Part shown: positions 31,488-61,536 of the stretch, piece after piece
Layout: every line of letters begins with the position of its first letter
How positions within the stretch are numbered: the first letter of the stretch is position 1
Source: a virus
IMG/VR virus record: IMGVR_UViG_3300032164_000001
Reading direction: 5' to 3' (one strand)
Length of the DNA: 64,000 nt
Program-made: the position numbers and the translations under genes
Notes under the pieces: model-generated
The model's input: only the letters and a program-made list of their open reading frames with translations
Told to the model about the DNA's origin: nothing
Databases searched by the model: none

Positions 31488-34400
31488 CTAAGCAGCAATG
31501 TCCAAGGCTAAAGCCGAACCCTCTATGCTCCATCCTGTCAATTTGCCTTGCTTGATTGCTTGCCACAAATCGTTGTCCAGAACCCGCGCGGCCATGAGCC
31601 AGGTTCCTTTTTTCACGAATTGAGCGTCCACCAGCATGTCGACCGGTGCGACATAGCTCTCCAACACACGAATCTTGACTGCCTCAAGTGGCCCACCTCG
31701 ATGCATGAGACCGATGTGCTGCGCTTGCTCCATGAAGTAGTAAGCAGCTTTCCGAACCGTCTCCTCATCATAGATGTCGCCCTGCGAATCGTACTCGTTC
31801 GGAACGAGCACTACGCCAAGCACGTAGCGCTCCTCGTCGGTCTTCACGATCTGCACGTGTCTCGAGCCACATGCATCCTTGGCTATCGCATCGGAAACTT
31901 CGTCTGAGGATTTCTTCAGTTCTCCACTACCTAGCAGGTCATGGACTTCCTGCAGAGTAGAAGGAGCTTGATCAGTCACATCGATAACGGATGGAGTGAA
32001 CCCACGCAGGCGCTTCTTGTCCGGATTAGATTCGTCCCAGAGGATCTCAGTGACCTCGATGCGAATCGTGTCTCCAGTCTTTACATTCAACTTTGAATTG
32101 AAACTGCGGCCCATCTTCACATACGTCTTGCCGTTCAACTCCACGGGTTCGACCCACGTCTTTGCATCCTCCTGACTGACAGGGCCCACGGCGTAGAAAA
32201 AGTTGAAGACTCCAGGCGAATCCTTCACCGGATGCGCATCCCAGACTATCCCCCTGATTTCTCGGATCATCTTCAACTTCGCCATGGAATCTGTCTCACG
32301 CAGCGTGACAGTACCCTCGGCGTACTTGAGCATTGCCCCCTCGGAACCTGGAATCTCCCGAGCCCACTTCAAAGCTGGTTCCATCTCCTCCTCGGAATGA
32401 ACCAACCTCGACTCGGTGAGCAGCAGTCGCTCGAGCTCCCTCTTTGACATGAACTCATGCAGCAGCTCGAGCCGTGTGCGCAGTGGTAGCACCACCACGT
32501 TGCCCCTTGTCGGATGGTATAAGATGTCAAAAAGTTGCACGCGGACATTGACGTCATTTGCTGCTGAAGCACCACGAAACGTGGCAAGCTCACGTCGAGG
32601 CACAGGGGCACCGGAATCGTCGACGGCCATAAACTCGCCATCCAGGATGTACGGACCAGGAATGGTCTCGAGCTCTTTCTTCAAACCGGGAAGGTGATCG
32701 AGAAAGTTGGAGATTGGCGTCTTTCGATCCCAGATGTCCTCGGAGATAGCCAACAGACGTCCTTCGCCATCTCGTTGAATCGACACACGAAATCCATTCC
32801 ATTTCGGCTGCACGTAGATGCCAGTCTTCAGCATCTCATCGGTGGCAAAGTCCGCATAGAGCCGGTCCATGTCGTTCGACCTGAACTCGTTGCTAGGCCT
32901 CGGTGCGGCCTTCATCGGCTTGTAAATGGCCAACGGCCTGAGGCGTTCTCTATCGTGTGTCTTGTCGTCACCGGGTTTGATGTCAGCCGGATCCCACACC
33001 TGTACATTGGTCAGCTTCTCTCCACCAGCCAGAGTGATCGTTGCAATCTTCTCCTCTTTATTGACAGAGCTCGCTTCCTCACTGAGCGCATGCACATGGC
33101 CTGTCGGCTTGTCATGAGGATGACCCTTGGCCGGCTGTACCTTGCCATTCACGACTGCATGCGTATGTGGCACGGCTTTGGCCGCAGCGCCGTCGCTGAT
33201 GACCGTCTCCGTTGTGTGACCATTTCCCTCACCGTCGACAATGGCCTGGTGGCTGTGCTTGTGACTTCGTCCTGCTTCACCCGTTGTACAACGCGCTGTG
33301 GACCGCTTGATTGGCTCTCCCACACCCTCACTGTGCTCCCAGATCCAGACTGTTCCCTCTCCTTCTTCGGCTCGCAGAATGATCAACCCACTGAATTCGC
33401 CTGGAAGGTTCTTGCCTTGCAGCTTGAACTTCTTGAAGGCGCGGCTGTCTTCCAGAAACTCGATGGTTCCTGTATGAAGAACACTGATCGACGACTCGGT
33501 GTCCTTCGTCGGGTTCAGATTCAATCCACCGTAGCTGGTGCCGGGCTTCACTTCGCCTTCGAGCTTCATCAGCTCTGCAGCTGCGCTCCCACTGGCCGTC
33601 TGATGCAAGGCCGTCACGCGTTGGTTCGAAGAGGGATCTTCTAGGAGCTGGAAGTCCTCGACGGACGCTCCTCGTCGAATGAAGAGATGGTAGATCTGTC
33701 TGGTCGGCGCCGCCCGGATAACCATCGCTCCCTTCCATCGTTGCCAAGAAAGAGTGAAAGGCGCACTGCCCAATGACATGCTGCTCACTGCTGTTTTCTC
33801 TTGACTCACGGGCTCAATTCGATCTAAAATACGGGAGGTTTGGGTGGGGTGAGGTTTATGTATGGGGGGTGTGGGGGGATTCCTCAGCGATATTGCAAAC
33901 TTGTCATACGCCCTTTCCACCGCCAGTAGGCTGTTCTCAGTTTCTTCTGATTTGCAGTAATCCCGGAAACTCCTTTCTTGCTCTAAGTCCAGCTTGTGAT
34001 GAGTTGCAATAGCATCGAGCGCGGTCTCGGGTTGTGGCCTGTACAGGTAGTACTTCGTGACGACGCGCTTGAACTGAGAGTCGACGAGCTTGATGTTCTC
34101 CTCGGTGAAGAAGTGCACATCGACGAGGGCATCGCGGATCTGCAGGCGCTCCTTCTCTTCTGTTGCCCGCCAGTACTGAAACTCCTTCGGCACGACGGAC
34201 TTGAGACCTGGTGGCAGGTAGGCCCAGCCCTTGGGTGGAATACGCTTCACGTTGACGGCTCGACGCTTCAAGACCGATGGCAGAAGTGACTTGGCGAACA
34301 TGGCCGTCCAGAACGGCACGCCTTCGGGCTGCTTGCGACCGGCCTCCACGTCTGGGTCCGTGGGCTTTCCCCCTTCGGAGACGAGCAATCTGAAAGTGAG

Positions 34401-37088
34401 CAAGCCGGAGAACTTGGGGTCCTTCTCGCAGAAGTACTCGTGGAAGTACGGCGTGCGCTCACCCCAGGACACTTGAGGCCTGGCCGTGATAACCATGAAC
34501 CCCTTTTCATTCCTCGTCGCACCCACGCTCCCTGGTTCAAAACCCTCTTCCACATCGAGCCACTGCTTGGGCTCCGGCGCCTTCGTTGCGGCATAGACCC
34601 GGTGTGGAGCTCGCAGGGGCTTGTTCCAGTCGGAGCCATCGATGGCGAAGGAGGAGACGATCTTCTTGGCCTCAGCGAGTGTCTCCGGCTTTGCGATCTT
34701 GCCCTTGATGGCATCCGCGGCCGTGTAGCCAATGAGGTAGCCATTCGCAGCGATCCTGATGTCCATGTGAACCGAGGCACCCCTGACGTGATGCTGCACG
34801 ACCGCCGGAAACGGTTTCTCCGTCGGTGGCAACTTCAAGAAGGGGTCCTGCTTGGCAATGAGCTCTTCGAGTTCTTCGACCAGTATCTCGGCATCACGCA
34901 TCTCGACGATCGTGTTGTAGTCCTCCCGCCTGCGCACGACCAAGTCATAGATGGGCAAATGGGCAGTGAAAGGCCCCACTCCGGCGAAGTCATCTTTCTC
35001 CAGCGCACCGCCATGGAATGACATGCGCTGGCCGATCTCCGCCGGCATCATGCGTCCGAGACGGAACTTCAGGATGTGAGCGGTTGCCTCGTCGAGCGGC
35101 CCACGAAGCAGCACATCGATGTCGTTCTTCGTCACGCCGTTGTTGGCAATGGAGCCCACGACCGAAACGACCGGACTGCGTAGCAAGAACTCTTCATGGA
35201 AGTGCGGCAGAAGCTCCTCCAGCTTCAACTCTGGCAGCTCCCCTGCGCTCCCCGGATGAATCGGGGCGTAGCGCTGACTCGGCCCGGCCTTGTAGAGCCC
35301 GGCCAGCTCCGGCGCATTCTCGATGTCAATCCCTCTCCGCTTGCATTCATCGAGGATGAACTTGAGCGCGTTCTCCACATCTTCCTTGGGCATGCTGTCC
35401 ACACTCGTGCGCCCCTCGGTGTATTCGGTCTCGAGCACCGTCTTGGCCGTGGCGTAGAGCTGCAATAGTTCCTCACTTGACAGCTGACGCAAGATGTCCG
35501 GAGTGAGCCCTCGAAAAGAGAGAAACGGCTTCTCTTCCTGCTTGCTTTGGGCGGGTTCTCGTGGTTGGCCTGCTGTCGACCCGTCTGTCGGTTCTTGTGG
35601 TTGACGTACTGTTGACTTGCTCAGAGCCTGTGGGAGCTCGATGACCGGGCCGTATCGACGGGCGGAGACGATGCGCTTCAGCTTCAGCGGCGGGTTGAAG
35701 GCCGCCACAAGCTTCATGGACATGTAGTAGATCGGAGTCTCGGTGGAGAACTCCTCACGAGAGAACTTGTCGATGCCATCTCGCATGTCATCCGGCATCT
35801 TCGAGAGATCGGCATACTCGACAGGTGCATCCAGAGTGATGACACCCCACACGTACTGGGCATCGGCCTTGGTCGGAGCCACCTCGTTGAGCAAGAACTG
35901 CCGCTGACCAGTTCGTCCTGTGCGTTGAAGTCTAGACAGCACGCCTGTAGACTGTTCCTTACGCAACCTTGCAATGTTGAAGGCTGCATCTGGCGTCTTC
36001 AGAGTGGAAAGCTTTCCCTTTGGCTGCTCGGCCTTCTCTACAAATTGAATCTCGTCCGAATGGATGAGACCACCGTCCGCGTCGTAGAGCGCATCGACGT
36101 GATGAAGGATGGCCTTGTGGAGAGTAGCCCCCTCCTGTACGAACTTGTCCTCGAGGGCCAAGAAGCCCTCGAGGCATGCAATGGCGTCCTCTGATAGCAC
36201 CAAGATGCGCGTCTCGGCTGGCAAAAACTCTCGGGCCATTCTGAGCTGCGTGATGAGCTTCTCTGCCAGGATGAAGATGTTCTCAAGCGAAGCAGCAACC
36301 GGCTTCTCGGTGAATGGCACCTCGGAGTAATCCTCGACGAGAGTCGAACCGACAACAACCACCGTGCGAAGCAGTGCGGTGTTGAGCTGCTCGGGCTCCA
36401 TGAGATGAATGGCTTGCTCGACGAAGGACGGGGCCACCTTGGCGAACGTGAGCGCCAGTGACAGCACATTGCCCAGGACCTGCAACTGCTGTTCCGTCGT
36501 AATCTCACTCCAATCAGCCTGTTTGCGCTCCGTGGCAACTGCTTGCTCCGCAACCGGATGCTTCCAGGGTTTGAGCTCGTCGAAGGCCTCGAGTTTCACC
36601 ACCGTATAGGCATACAGCCTGCGGCTGCGTGGCCACCAGCTCTTGCGCTCCTCCTCGGAGATCTTGTGCTGGTCGCTGAGCCTGCGAAACTGTGCAATGG
36701 AGATCGGCTTCGCCGCACCCAATTCCATCACGCCGTAGATGAACTGCTTGTCGCCAAAGTGCAGACGCTCCCCTGCAACATCGAGTTGCCTCGAGTGCAC
36801 GATGAGCCTCTTCTCACCACGTCGTACCGCTTCCGCATGGGGCTCGACCATGCGACGGAGTGGATCTGACTTCGCCGAACGCAGGAGCGTTGTGAGGTTC
36901 TGCAAGTTGTCGACAAGCTGCTCGAGCTCTTTCTTCGAATTCATCGTTCGATCCTCCATGGATGATCGCGGTCTGAGATGCTTTGGAGACGATGGACTCC
37001 CCGTCGATTGACGCCTGAGGATGCTTTCCAGATTGCGGGCTCCCCATTTGTCGGTGTTGGGGATCGGGGCTCGACCCGAACTGTGCAT
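31488..37088 (-). CDS. Giant multidomain protein: 2x ASCH-like, nucleotidyltransferase, LigD-type phosphoesterase(s), His-rich segment, ATP-dependent ligase, XkdF-type prohead protease
   Basis: NTase GSIANNGVTKNDID; PE VVQHHVRGASVHMDIR; ligase QPKWNGFR, ILDGEF, LFDILY, EGAMLK, AKLK; protease YVLGVVLVPNEYDSQGD...KKGTWL...LWQAIKQGKLTGWSIEG. Alternative start at 36944 (GGAGG RBS). Confidence 0.88.
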   Translation of the reverse strand: MHSSGRAPIPNTDKWGARNLESILRRQSTGSPSSPKHLRPRSSMEDRTMNSKKELEQLVDNLQNLTTLLRSAKSDPLRRMVEPHAEAVRRGEKRLIVHSRQLDVAGERLHFGDKQFIYGVMELGAAKPISIAQFRRLSDQHKISEEERKSWWPRSRRLYAYTVVKLEAFDELKPWKHPVAEQAVATERKQADWSEITTEQQLQVLGNVLSLALTFAKVAPSFVEQAIHLMEPEQLNTALLRTVVVVGSTLVEDYSEVPFTEKPVAASLENIFILAEKLITQLRMAREFLPAETRILVLSEDAIACLEGFLALEDKFVQEGATLHKAILHHVDALYDADGGLIHSDEIQFVEKAEQPKGKLSTLKTPDAAFNIARLRKEQSTGVLSRLQRTGRTGQRQFLLNEVAPTKADAQYVWGVITLDAPVEYADLSKMPDDMRDGIDKFSREEFSTETPIYYMSMKLVAAFNPPLKLKRIVSARRYGPVIELPQALSKSTVRQPQEPTDGSTAGQPREPAQSKQEEKPFLSFRGLTPDILRQLSSEELLQLYATAKTVLETEYTEGRTSVDSMPKEDVENALKFILDECKRRGIDIENAPELAGLYKAGPSQRYAPIHPGSAGELPELKLEELLPHFHEEFLLRSPVVSVVGSIANNGVTKNDIDVLLRGPLDEATAHILKFRLGRMMPAEIGQRMSFHGGALEKDDFAGVGPFTAHLPIYDLVVRRREDYNTIVEMRDAEILVEELEELIAKQDPFLKLPPTEKPFPAVVQHHVRGASVHMDIRIAANGYLIGYTAADAIKGKIAKPETLAEAKKIVSSFAIDGSDWNKPLRAPHRVYAATKAPEPKQWLDVEEGFEPGSVGATRNEKGFMVITARPQVSWGERTPYFHEYFCEKDPKFSGLLTFRLLVSEGGKPTDPDVEAGRKQPEGVPFWTAMFAKSLLPSVLKRRAVNVKRIPPKGWAYLPPGLKSVVPKEFQYWRATEEKERLQIRDALVDVHFFTEENIKLVDSQFKRVVTKYYLYRPQPETALDAIATHHKLDLEQERSFRDYCKSEETENSLLAVERAYDKFAISLRNPPTPPIHKPHPTQTSRILDRIEPVSQEKTAVSSMSLGSAPFTLSWQRWKGAMVIRAAPTRQIYHLFIRRGASVEDFQLLEDPSSNQRVTALHQTASGSAAAELMKLEGEVKPGTSYGGLNLNPTKDTESSISVLHTGTIEFLEDSRAFKKFKLQGKNLPGEFSGLIILRAEEGEGTVWIWEHSEGVGEPIKRSTARCTTGEAGRSHKHSHQAIVDGEGNGHTTETVISDGAAAKAVPHTHAVVNGKVQPAKGHPHDKPTGHVHALSEEASSVNKEEKIATITLAGGEKLTNVQVWDPADIKPGDDKTHDRERLRPLAIYKPMKAAPRPSNEFRSNDMDRLYADFATDEMLKTGIYVQPKWNGFRVSIQRDGEGRLLAISEDIWDRKTPISNFLDHLPGLKKELETIPGPYILDGEFMAVDDSGAPVPRRELATFRGASAANDVNVRVQLFDILYHPTRGNVVVLPLRTRLELLHEFMSKRELERLLLTESRLVHSEEEMEPALKWAREIPGSEGAMLKYAEGTVTLRETDSMAKLKMIREIRGIVWDAHPVKDSPGVFNFFYAVGPVSQEDAKTWVEPVELNGKTYVKMGRSFNSKLNVKTGDTIRIEVTEILWDESNPDKKRLRGFTPSVIDVTDQAPSTLQEVHDLLGSGELKKSSDEVSDAIAKDACGSRHVQIVKTDEERYVLGVVLVPNEYDSQGDIYDEETVRKAAYYFMEQAQHIGLMHRGGPLEAVKIRVLESYVAPVDMLVDAQFVKKGTWLMAARVLDNDLWQAIKQGKLTGWSIEGSALALDIAA
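33801..33870 (+). promoter_or_regulatory. Sigma70-like promoter plus G-rich element, copy 1 (antisense within the giant gene)
   Basis: TTGACT(33801)-N18-TAAAAT(33825), then a 40-mer matching 61457..61496 at 33/40 positions. Confidence 0.65.
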
Positions 37089-37557: not shown

Positions 37558-39342
37558 CTACTCCTCGTCTGCAAAGCCGCCACCGCCCAGTGGCTGCAGG
37601 GGCATACCAGCCCTGTGCATGGCGGACAGCGGGATGACTCTGTCAGAACTCACTGCAACGTCCTGCGCCGTTTCCTCTTCTGCTGGCCGTGTGACAAGCG
37701 GAATGGGCGAGGAGCCAATGCCCAGGTCGTCAGCGGTCGACCCGGTGTGTAACTGCGCAAGAACGAAGGGCAGAGGCTTATTTGTCCAGTCCTCGGAAAT
37801 CTCTTCGAAGGCTCGGTTGAAGATGTCGGCGGCGAGCTCGCGGGCCTCAACCGGAAGCAGGATTCCTGCCTTGACCATGTTGGTCACCATGTCAGACATG
37901 GCTTCCGGGTCCCGGACGATTGGAGAGTTGGACCTGAAGATCCAGAACGTGATGCCTAGATCCGGAAAGATTCTCCGGTTGACGACAGAGTCAAGCACTT
38001 CTCGCTCTGGTTCGAACACCTGCTCTTCGGCAAGCTTCATCGAGGCGTAGGCCACCGAGCGATTCAACTGCTTGTCATCCCCTCGAAGAATTCTGGGCAG
38101 GCGGAAGGACCGAGCCACCTTTTCCTCATTCCTGACATCATAGTTCTGGAAGAGGGCATCCGACTGCTGTGCATCGCGGAGTGGGACGAACATCACCCTG
38201 GGAACTTGTCGTGGGCCAGAGTCTCCGACGGAGCGCTGGCTCTCGGCCTCGAGCACCAGGATGCGATGCGTGCTTCGCTTGCCCTTGAGATGCTCGTCGA
38301 TGAACTCCTCGATTCGTGTCGTGACGCCCTTGCCCAACCGTCCGCCTGACACGAGAAGAGCGAGTGGAGGAACGACGTTGTTCTTGAAGTAGTTGTAGTT
38401 CACCTCTTCGAGCTCTCTGTTACCAAGGACTCCAGGAAGGTTGGCGATCCAGCGCGAGACACCGTAGTCCGAGGCCGGGGTGAAGATGGTGAAGTGCAGC
38501 ATCTCCGACGCTGGTAGAGCCGTCGGCTCCTCAATCCGCAAGCCCTCCGGAGAGTCATACACTTTCCCCGTGCTGCGAGAGATGATTCGGGGATCGCCCA
38601 GCTCCTTGAAGTAGACACGTCGGCCATGCCGTCCAATCTTGAAATAGCGACGGAAGTAGATCGGCACTTCGTAAGTGCGCCATGTGATGTCCGTGACACG
38701 CACCTTCTCCTTCACCAGGGTTGGCTCTTCGTCTTCCTCACAGAGGCGCACGTGCAACGGGTTCACATAGTAGATGTTGACGATCTCACTGAGGCTGTTA
38801 CGCACAACTTCCCAGAACGCGTTGCCGATGACTTCCAGGTCTTGTCTCGTCCGACGACGCAGTTCGATGAAGGAGAAGAGCGGACAGACAAAGGAAAAGA
38901 AGGCCTTGAGCCTGGAGTACTCGAGTCTCGCTGTCCGACGGAGAAGCTCGATGCGGGCATCGACCTCGACCTCCGTCGGTTCGACAACGGCCTCCAGCAC
39001 CTCGCCCTTTTCGTGCGCATCCAGCGTGCGCTCGTAGAGAATGGCATCTGCGATGCGACCACGGGCGGATTTGGACGCCAGATCAATGGTTGGCAGAAGA
39101 TGGTGGCCAAAAGACTCGATGTTGGTCACATAGGCATCAACGTTGGGCCGCAGAATCGATGACTGCTCGAACAGCTTGTAAAGTCTCTCGAAATCGTAAG
39201 GGGGTGTCAGAACACCGGCCTCTTCGTCCTTCTTCACCAGGAAATCTATAAGTTCTGTGCCCTTCCGCTCTGCCTTGCCGAGCACGGTGGCCTTAATCGC
39301 TGAAACCTTTCTGGTTTTCGCTACGCTTTTATTAGTTGCCAC
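37558..39342 (-). CDS. Portal protein (PBSX/XkdE-like)
   Basis: TPPYDFERL; DLEVIGNAFWEVVRN; EMLHF; YGVSRW; NYNYFKNNVVP; SFRLP. Probable GTG start at 39342 after AGGAG. Confidence 0.93.
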   Translation of the reverse strand: MATNKSVAKTRKVSAIKATVLGKAERKGTELIDFLVKKDEEAGVLTPPYDFERLYKLFEQSSILRPNVDAYVTNIESFGHHLLPTIDLASKSARGRIADAILYERTLDAHEKGEVLEAVVEPTEVEVDARIELLRRTARLEYSRLKAFFSFVCPLFSFIELRRRTRQDLEVIGNAFWEVVRNSLSEIVNIYYVNPLHVRLCEEDEEPTLVKEKVRVTDITWRTYEVPIYFRRYFKIGRHGRRVYFKELGDPRIISRSTGKVYDSPEGLRIEEPTALPASEMLHFTIFTPASDYGVSRWIANLPGVLGNRELEEVNYNYFKNNVVPPLALLVSGGRLGKGVTTRIEEFIDEHLKGKRSTHRILVLEAESQRSVGDSGPRQVPRVMFVPLRDAQQSDALFQNYDVRNEEKVARSFRLPRILRGDDKQLNRSVAYASMKLAEEQVFEPEREVLDSVVNRRIFPDLGITFWIFRSNSPIVRDPEAMSDMVTNMVKAGILLPVEARELAADIFNRAFEEISEDWTNKPLPFVLAQLHTGSTADDLGIGSSPIPLVTRPAEEETAQDVAVSSDRVIPLSAMHRAGMPLQPLGGGGFADEE

Positions 39343-39400
39343 CTGATGTATCTCCTGCAAGTTGATGCTACTGTGCCACCCACGTGACACGATTTGCGCC

Positions 39401-39429
39401 ATGATAGACAGTCTTTGCTGGACAGTCAA
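39401..39429 (-). promoter_or_regulatory. Sigma70-like promoter of the portal/morphogenesis operon
   Basis: TTGACT-N17-TATCAT on the minus strand, ~60 nt upstream of the portal start. Confidence 0.6.
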
Positions 39430-39506
39430 ACCCAAAATGTGGCAGCATGTGAAGCGTCAACCATTCCGCGCAAGCCAAATAGAAGTCAGCGGAGGCAATT
39501 CAAACC

Positions 39507-60867: not shown

Positions 60868-61294
60868 AGTGCTGATCGTTACTGCATTACTCTGCCTGAG
60901 CGCACCGGTTTGGGCGCAGACCGAAGCGCCTGCAGCTCCTCTTGGCTCACAGCCCTACACGTTGCATGGTGTGGACGGCTTGTGGTTTCCCATGACGTCG
61001 GCTCGCAAGCTGCTCACGGATGTGTTGAAGGGCTCAGAGATGGAGCAGACGCTGAAGCTGATCGAGCAGCGCCTACAGTTCGAGAAGGACCGCAGCGAGC
61101 TCCTGAACCGCAACGTGAAGACCATCGAGCAGATCGCTGTCCAGTGGAAGGGCACCGCCGAGGCGCAAGCCAAGCAACTAGCCACAGCAATCCCATGGTG
61201 GAGGCACCCCTACCTCTGGACAGCCGTCGGATTCGTCGTCGGAACCGGCGTGACCGTCGGCCTCACCTTCGCGGCCCAACGGGCCACGAATTAA
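60827..61294 (+). CDS. Exported coiled-coil protein with C-terminal anchor (spanin partner-like)
   Basis: AGGAG RBS; overlaps the preceding gene; signal peptide ending PVWA/Q; C-terminal hydrophobic helix. Confidence 0.55.
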   Translation: MLKSSRRSRNSATEVLIVTALLCLSAPVWAQTEAPAAPLGSQPYTLHGVDGLWFPMTSARKLLTDVLKGSEMEQTLKLIEQRLQFEKDRSELLNRNVKTIEQIAVQWKGTAEAQAKQLATAIPWWRHPYLWTAVGFVVGTGVTVGLTFAAQRATN

Positions 61295-61315: not shown

Positions 61316-61396
61316 CTTCTCTCTTCTCCCTTCTCTTCCTCCTTCTCCCTTCTCTTCCTCCTTCTCCCTTCTCTTCCTACTTCTCCTTCCTCTTCT
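61316..61396 (+). repeat. Polypyrimidine tract with three 19-bp tandem repeats
   Basis: CTTCTCCCTTCTCTTCCTC at 61323, 61342 and 61361 (last base A) plus a degenerate fourth copy; one purine in 81 nt. Confidence 0.92.
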
Positions 61397-61425
61397 AGGA
61401 ATAGCCGTTTCCCCGCATAATTGTC

Positions 61426-61496
61426 TTGACAGTTCCACATTGCATAATATAGAATGACGGGTGGTTGGGGTGGGTTAAGGTTTGTATATAGGGGGT
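61426..61496 (+). promoter_or_regulatory. Sigma70-like promoter plus G-rich element, copy 2
   Basis: TTGACA(61426)-N18-TAGAAT(61450), then ACGGGTGGTTGGGGTGGGTTAAGGTTTGTATATAGGGGGT. Confidence 0.7.
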
Positions 61497-61536
61497 TGTT
61501 AAATGAATCCAAGAGCTTGCGTCAGCACTGAATCAT

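Follow-up and report, generated by a model that had tools for sequence, protein, structure and literature searches.

Promoters that lie within genes and point against them are common in bacteria and phages, and whether most of them are noise is debated. The T4 origin oriG, which is the same as ori(34), is located within late gene 34. The title of reference 25 of PMC3016281 ('overlapping uvsY promoter/replication origin') suggests that the oriF promoter of T4 doubles as a promoter for uvsY mRNA. R-loop formation has been shown for transcripts made from the oriF promoter, and both oriF and oriG join a MotA-dependent middle promoter to a downstream A+T-rich unwinding element (PMC3016281). In phage PAK_P3 early antisense RNAs extend over structural genes and have been proposed to hold down late genes (PMC4933390). 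The PeSL (promoter-early stem-loop) cassettes of T4-type phages are about 100 bp long, carry a strong sigma70-like promoter and a stem-loop terminator, sit in many copies between non-essential genes in hyperplastic regions and are homogenised within genomes (PMC2839356, PMC4122927). The subject of this report is a predicted promoter followed directly by a G-rich leader (site 1), which lies at 33801-33879 on the plus strand within, and antisense to, a giant virion gene of a myovirus-like phage. The DNA analysed, here called the window, is a stretch of 64,000 nucleotides (nt) from IMG/VR virus record IMGVR_UViG_3300032164_000001, whose parent contig is 180,372 bp long. With moderate confidence we consider site 1 to be a sigma70-type promoter and G-rich 5' leader that selection has maintained, and which would direct an antisense transcript against the operon of the portal and giant genes.

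A close parallel is with the early cis-antisense RNAs of the virulent phages PAK_P3 and PAK_P4, whose promoters likewise lie within virion genes and point against them, and the role proposed for them fits the convergent geometry seen here (PMC4933390). They were discovered by RNA-seq, without any report of a conserved promoter architecture, whereas site 1 is a prediction from sequence and differs in its clade-wide sequence conservation, its shared G-rich leader and its overprinting, through rare codons, on a coding linker. The likeness to PeSLs lies in the length, the strong promoter, the multiplicity and the within-genome homogenisation; unlike them, the present cassette has a G-rich leader where no stem-loop was found, and one of its copies is inside a core structural gene. 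T4 oriF and oriG share with it the plan of a promoter plus a downstream element, but here there are full -35 and -10 hexamers, a G-rich leader and many copies. ColE1 RNA II and mitochondrial CSB II resemble it as promoter-driven RNAs with G runs, able to hybridise stably with a C-rich template, but the cassette shows no evident origin, RNase H site or RNA II-like fold, and its G-quadruplex (G4)-capable arrangement is not conserved.

The elements of site 1, of its host gene and of the second copy in the window (site 2) are as follows.

33789-33800, plus strand: T-rich tract TGCTGTTTTCTC, 5' of the site 1 -35 element and possibly UP-like; the minus strand here encodes ...E-K-T...
33801-33806, plus strand: site 1 -35 element, TTGACT, read directly
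33825-33830, plus strand: site 1 -10 element, TAAAAT, after an 18-nt spacer
33801-33830, plus strand: predicted sigma70-type promoter of site 1 as a whole, antisense to the giant gene, with 10 of 12 consensus matches
33831-33870, plus strand: site 1 40-mer, abutting the -10 element
33831-33879, plus strand: site 1 leader, G-rich and C-poor, made up of the 40-mer and an extra GTGGGGGGA tail that is unique to this copy
31488-37088, minus strand: giant virion gene of 1866 codons that hosts site 1, with an ATP-dependent DNA ligase domain (PF01068 at 2e-16) and a C-terminal XkdF-type prohead protease (PF14550 at 1.2e-26)
61426-61431, plus strand: site 2 -35 element, TTGACA, read directly
61450-61455, plus strand: site 2 -10 element, TAGAAT, after an 18-nt spacer and followed by one extra G
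61457-61496, plus strand: site 2 40-mer
61426-61496, plus strand: site 2 as a whole, in a convergent intergenic gap and facing the 3' end of a minus-strand ThyX/dNMP-kinase operon

Both sites have a -35 element near TTGACA, an 18-nt spacer and a -10 element whose second base is A and whose sixth is T, as is typical of sigma70-type promoters, and shuffles yield a mean of 0.2 sites of the promoter-like quality of site 1. The original prediction had placed an antisense promoter with a G-rich element at 33801 and a homologous copy at 61426, and direct reading bears this out, the two 40-mers being identical at 33 of 40 positions without gaps. A chance or low-complexity origin of this identity, which the same prediction had named as a possible undoing, is excluded because the second-best ungapped match of either 40-mer, over the whole window and both strands, is 23/40, because 200,000 shuffles of unchanged composition gave at most 28 matches and never 33, and because a composition-aware binomial gives P = 2.5e-8. 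The site 1 leader matches the profile of the cassette family at an nhmmer E of 4e-20. Site 2 is identical in three other strain contigs; in a fourth (L006:5292-5387, equivalent to window positions 61415-61510) a G-to-T change turns GGGG into GTGG in the second G run, and this is one of only two differences across 480 bp.

The comparative evidence comes from related phages, which were gathered by an alignment-based search and, in one instance, by exact protein look-up. A five-copy profile gave a weak match in L001 (protein 49% identical), on the strand antisense to its giant gene, and seven other phages, with giant proteins 44-63% identical, carry a homologous cassette in their orthologue of the ligase/XkdF-protease gene, as the earlier expectation of conservation in relatives required. 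The cassette is always antisense and always in a hypervariable linker. L012, which lay outside the training set of the profile, was matched at E = 1.3e-8. The promoters of the seven read as follows.

L001: -35 TTGACC, spacer 17 nt, -10 TAGACT
L009: -35 TTGACA, spacer 17 nt, -10 TATCGT
L010: -35 TTGACG, spacer 17 nt, -10 CATCCT
L169: -35 TTGACC, spacer 17 nt, -10 TATCAT
L012: -35 TTGACC, spacer 17 nt, -10 TATCCT
L025: -35 TTGACC, spacer 17 nt, -10 TATCCT
L089: -35 TTGACT, spacer 17 nt, -10 TAAGCT

When 14 cassettes are aligned (alignment A7), TTGAC and the -10 positions A-11 and T-7 are invariant, the T-rich tract stands 5' of the -35 element in all 14, and a core of GGCGG-(T/G)-GGG-N-GGG lies 3' of the -10 element. 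In most phages the cassette occupies the linker right after a conserved TKYYLY block; in L001 and L169 (protein P0008) it is in the next linker instead, and in proteins P0010 and P0012 its peptide footprint is found in further, different architectures. The cassette is missing from the more distant giant-gene relatives and from the two complete phages of 113-118 kb that were examined, and it therefore marks a clade. A single-protein locus search of IMG/VR found nothing, nor did a scan of IMG/VR with an exact 23-base pattern; a metagenome scan with the same pattern was also blank but is unreliable, its blanks not amounting to absence, and an exact 23-base match is present in JGI contigs Ga0315287_10000679, Ga0315290_10006794 and Ga0315273_10025996 (L003-L005). 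Apart from two unrelated intergenic matches, the pattern TTTTTCTTGACN{24,28}GGCGGKKGG was met with in a scan only on the L009 contig, which was already known.

The linker that holds site 1 is proline-rich, hypervariable and filled with insertions and deletions, lies between two conserved blocks and cannot be aligned among relatives. Across the site the minus-strand open reading frame (ORF) is translated as ...LRNPPTPPIHKPHPTQTSRILDRIEPVSQEK... (also given as ...NPPTPPIHKPHPTQTSRILDRIEPVSQEK...), the C-rich complement of the leader being read as a Pro-rich peptide of the giant protein. The domains on either side had been called PE-like, a description that finds no support in Pfam (no match at E <= 1) or in the PDB (no meaningful sequence match). 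The companion proposal, that the protein accommodates a DNA element in its linker, is supported. On the coding strand TTGACN and the T tract are read as x-Gln-Glu/Asp-Lys, and codon choice here was assessed in five phages, the genes being GC-rich. Glutamine at the -35 element is always CAA, a codon that serves for 6-37% of Gln in these genes; lysine under the T tract is always AAA, which serves for 4-42% of Lys; and the residue before the glutamine may be S, G, C or R, yet in every case an NGT codon encodes it. Of the -35 bases in this codon, the least important one is free to vary, and the two belonging to TTGAC are fixed. Since the residue at the NGT codon varies, the pattern points to selection on DNA. 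From codon usage alone the joint probability is 2e-13, a value that overstates independence, as the eight phages share ancestry, although the linker around the cassette has diverged past alignment in spite of that ancestry. It is because the arrangement is kept, by means of rare codons, in at least eight related phages that we regard it as regulatory and under maintenance rather than as a product of chance. Site 1 carries a clear footprint of purifying selection, in which rare synonymous codons hold the letters of the promoter while the encoded residue changes, and it offers a clean case of dual coding, with a protein linker on one strand and a promoter and leader on the other.

The cassette is not confined to the window. 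Further copies were read from the near-identical strain contig JGI Ga0315287_10000679 (loci L003, L007 and L008), bringing those of this phage to five, two in the window and three just outside it. The three outside copies are on a common strand.

L007:12834: copy preceding by 120 nt the start codon (ATG) of a TSCPD-domain gene that has its own Shine-Dalgarno sequence
L007:15768: copy in a divergent gap, 70 nt before a gene of 67 codons
L008:16530: copy at the end of a plus-strand operon, facing a minus-strand DsrC-like gene, with a geometry like that of site 2

Two of the five copies thus lie upstream of co-oriented ordinary genes and three are antisense. Because two stand directly 5' of co-oriented genes, the element is a repeated promoter-plus-leader cassette, and the dedicated two-copy G-rich RNA that was first envisaged gives way to a multi-copy promoter and 5' leader, some copies of which head ordinary genes. 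The conserved block runs from the T-rich tract before the -35 element through about 50 nt beyond the -10 element, and the spacer is of 18 nt in four of the five copies and of 17-18 nt across the family. The spacers had been described as different, which is correct for sites 1 and 2 but not for the family, given that the 3' half of the site 1 spacer, AATTCGATC, is found again in two other copies. Most likely the cassette is a working promoter class of the clade, with a consensus -35 element and a usable -10 element, of which one copy has been retained antisense in the giant gene; a signature of this kind, common to a clade, is useful for annotating the transcription units of uncultured large phages. 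In the copy before the 67-residue gene the conserved TTG of the leader opens a 16-codon ORF (L008:5953-6003, equal to L007:15824-15874) whose terminal TGA overlaps the ATG of the gene (ATGA), an arrangement that suggests translational coupling and is absent from the other copies.

Covariance-model searches of the IMG/VR records of three relatives uncovered more intergenic copies, each with the leader flavour of its own phage; three to four copies of the cassette are known in relatives. One of these, in L175 from the L009 phage, reads TTGACA-18-TACCCT-GGATGGCGGGTGGGTGGGCG... and lies upstream of an ORF of about 480 codons. At L176:1575-1610 (minus strand), in the IMG/VR record of L009, the cassette begins just after a sequence resembling the T-arm end of a tRNA (GGTTCGAACCC), and a tRNA gene may adjoin it upstream. 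Mean leader identity is 79% within genomes against 64% between them, and the identity of the site 1 leader is 80-88% with the other copies of this phage but at most 70% with any copy elsewhere. Such a distribution suggests that the copies are either homogenised by recombination or co-evolving with a common trans-acting partner.

The conserved part of the leader begins at the start with some 25 nt in which G is clustered and C is scarce, and then passes into an AT-rich patch of only about 10 nt; the G content of the 40-50 nt downstream is 29-51%. The prediction of G-tracts holds in that each window copy has at least four runs of three or more G, but the G-quadruplex idea is weakened, since neither window copy has the canonical G4 motif (four GGG runs, loops of up to 12 nt) and 17 of the 18 family members lack it. 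Only two-tetrad (GG) motifs are universal in the family. Scans of the whole window against Rfam 15 (gathering score) and for tRNAs, and a search of INPHARED phage DNA with both regions, gave no match. RNAalifold gave no consensus structure and no pairs on the leaders. A conserved 5' hairpin was considered and set aside: when the sequences of some relatives are folded singly, the G block pairs with a C-rich arm further downstream, at about 2-3 standard deviations below shuffles, but without an RNAalifold consensus. A conserved leader peptide was likewise rejected, as short ORFs from the conserved ATG or TTG vary in frame and length among copies. The G-rich leader appears to be a module common to all transcripts of this promoter class, and candidate roles for it are a binding site for a protein or the ribosome, 5' stability, resistance to Rho and R-loop formation; the case also points to a factor or property that recognises the leader.

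How site 1 might act is suggested by its surroundings. The portal, giant, tail sheath and tape-measure genes are on the minus strand, a tail-fibre/holin block occupies the plus strand from 39.5 to 61.3 kb, and the ThyX/dNMP-kinase block lies on the minus strand from 61.5 kb. Two features upstream of the giant gene bear directly on the question.

37558-39435, minus strand: portal gene
39429-39401, minus strand: sigma70-like promoter, TTGACT-17-TATCAT, heading the operon of the portal and giant genes and facing site 1 across 5.6 kb

Site 1 and this promoter are the two best sigma70-like sites within 33.8-39.6 kb and stand face to face, so that the latter would be the convergent partner of the former. 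Host RNA polymerase would fire from site 1, starting at about 33836-33838, and the RNA would run against the portal/giant-gene operon, where convergent transcription, through antisense pairing or polymerase collision, would be the simplest means of damping or timing expression. By position alone site 1 would begin a transcript inside, and antisense to, a structural gene. Site 2 may act likewise on the 3' end of the convergent ThyX operon, from a gap of about 220 bp between the last plus-strand gene, which ends at 61294, and the last gene of that operon, and L008:16530 may do so on the 3' end of its own convergent operon. Directly upstream of site 2 in its gap is a pyrimidine-only tandem repeat (61323-61395), consisting of 3.8 copies of the 19-nt unit CTTCTCCCTTCTCTTCCTC and including CCTCC strings that resemble the anti-Shine-Dalgarno sequence; JGI gene callers place on its complement a 49-residue ORF that is probably spurious.

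Several points, besides the shared ancestry behind the codon probability, weigh against antisense control by a maintained promoter. The activity and start site of the promoter, like the length and timing of its RNA, are matters of inference, and the terminator that should bound the antisense RNA of site 1 was not found, no terminator-like hairpin being present at site 1 or site 2. The cassette promoter class need not be early; the structural operon is itself headed by a sigma70-like promoter. Site 2 opposes genes of nucleotide metabolism and not late genes, a misfit with a simple scheme in which late genes are silenced early. The core of the leader, read as P-P-T-A, uses common codons and is therefore uninformative.

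A bolder form of the same idea, which we put forward only tentatively and think rather doubtful, would make the antisense cassette an obligatory control point of the clade, at which a G-rich RNA or R-loop, produced from a host-polymerase promoter overprinted on the linker by way of rare codons, gates expression of the packaged repair-enzyme/protease gene or starts DNA replication in the head-gene module, the leader being recognised by a co-evolving, clade-specific factor.

That the cassette is an R-loop or primer element, its G-rich transcript staying hybridised to the C-rich template to prime replication or to mark a start of recombination or replication, was one of the two functions originally predicted, on the model of ColE1 RNA II or mitochondrial CSB II, and is in our judgement unlikely. 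All 18 family members keep G clusters on the non-template strand immediately downstream of the start, the position within one gene is conserved across the clade, and T4 oriF and oriG provide a precedent in which a promoter and a downstream element form a persistent R-loop (PMC3016281). The T4 origins, however, are defined by the promoter together with an A+T-rich unwinding element of tens of base pairs, which the leader lacks, only its brief AT-rich patch following the G block (PMC3016281); five verified copies in one genome are many for origins, 17 of the 18 family members are devoid of canonical G4 motifs, and no switch in composition skew is seen at site 1 or site 2. Antisense silencing would seem to fit the geometry better than an R-loop primer.

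Another improbable account is that of a portable regulatory cassette with no specific role in the giant gene, spread and homogenised by recombination in the manner of PeSLs, a copy of which the linker tolerates and gene conversion refreshes. In its favour, each genome has many copies that are conserved along some 100 bp, leaders are more alike within than between genomes, the giant-gene linkers are hotspots of insertion and deletion with the cassette in at least two different ones, and PeSLs are themselves sigma70 promoter cassettes that mediate shuffling (PMC2839356, PMC4122927). On the other hand, with proteins that have diverged by 40-55%, some lineages should by now be rid of a tolerated passenger, and the cassette is present in all eight clade phages examined, in identical orientation and reading frame; it comes with no stem-loop terminator, and recombination between an intragenic and an intergenic copy would usually be lethal.

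Least credible, to the point of being very improbable, is that the conserved thing is a peptide, P-x-P-P-T-A-(V/I)-(Q/H)-x7-x-Q-E-K, serving as a prohead-protease cleavage site (S/A/G-x-E type) or polyproline pause with an incidental likeness to a promoter, for although this footprint recurs in several relatives, with its seven-residue spacing fixed in six proteins (P0003, P0004, P0005, P0008, P0010 and P0012) that belong to a family with its own protease domain, it is best read as the shadow of a DNA element because the same motif occurs in non-coding intergenic copies and because in the window the spacer, longer by one base at 18 nt, alters the upstream peptide while leaving the x-Q-E-K end and the DNA motif intact, to which are added the invariant NGT before a changing residue and the rare Gln and Lys codons.

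Selection on DNA for an antisense promoter and leader is what we continue to favour, and it would operate within a gene family that is in other respects strongly modular (proteins P0002-P0030; alignment A1, columns 505-550 and 1100-1200). P0004 has a further Cys-rich insert within the same linker as the cassette. An N6-adenine methylase domain (PF02086) or a metallo-beta-lactamase fold (PF12706) is an extra module of some family members, and two relatives carry a CxxC...CxxC insert resembling a zinc ribbon. About 10-25 kb to the right of the window, the near-identical strain (L008) encodes a set of accessory genes that includes PTH2, TSCPD-domain, ThiF/E1-like, DsrC-like and MazG genes.

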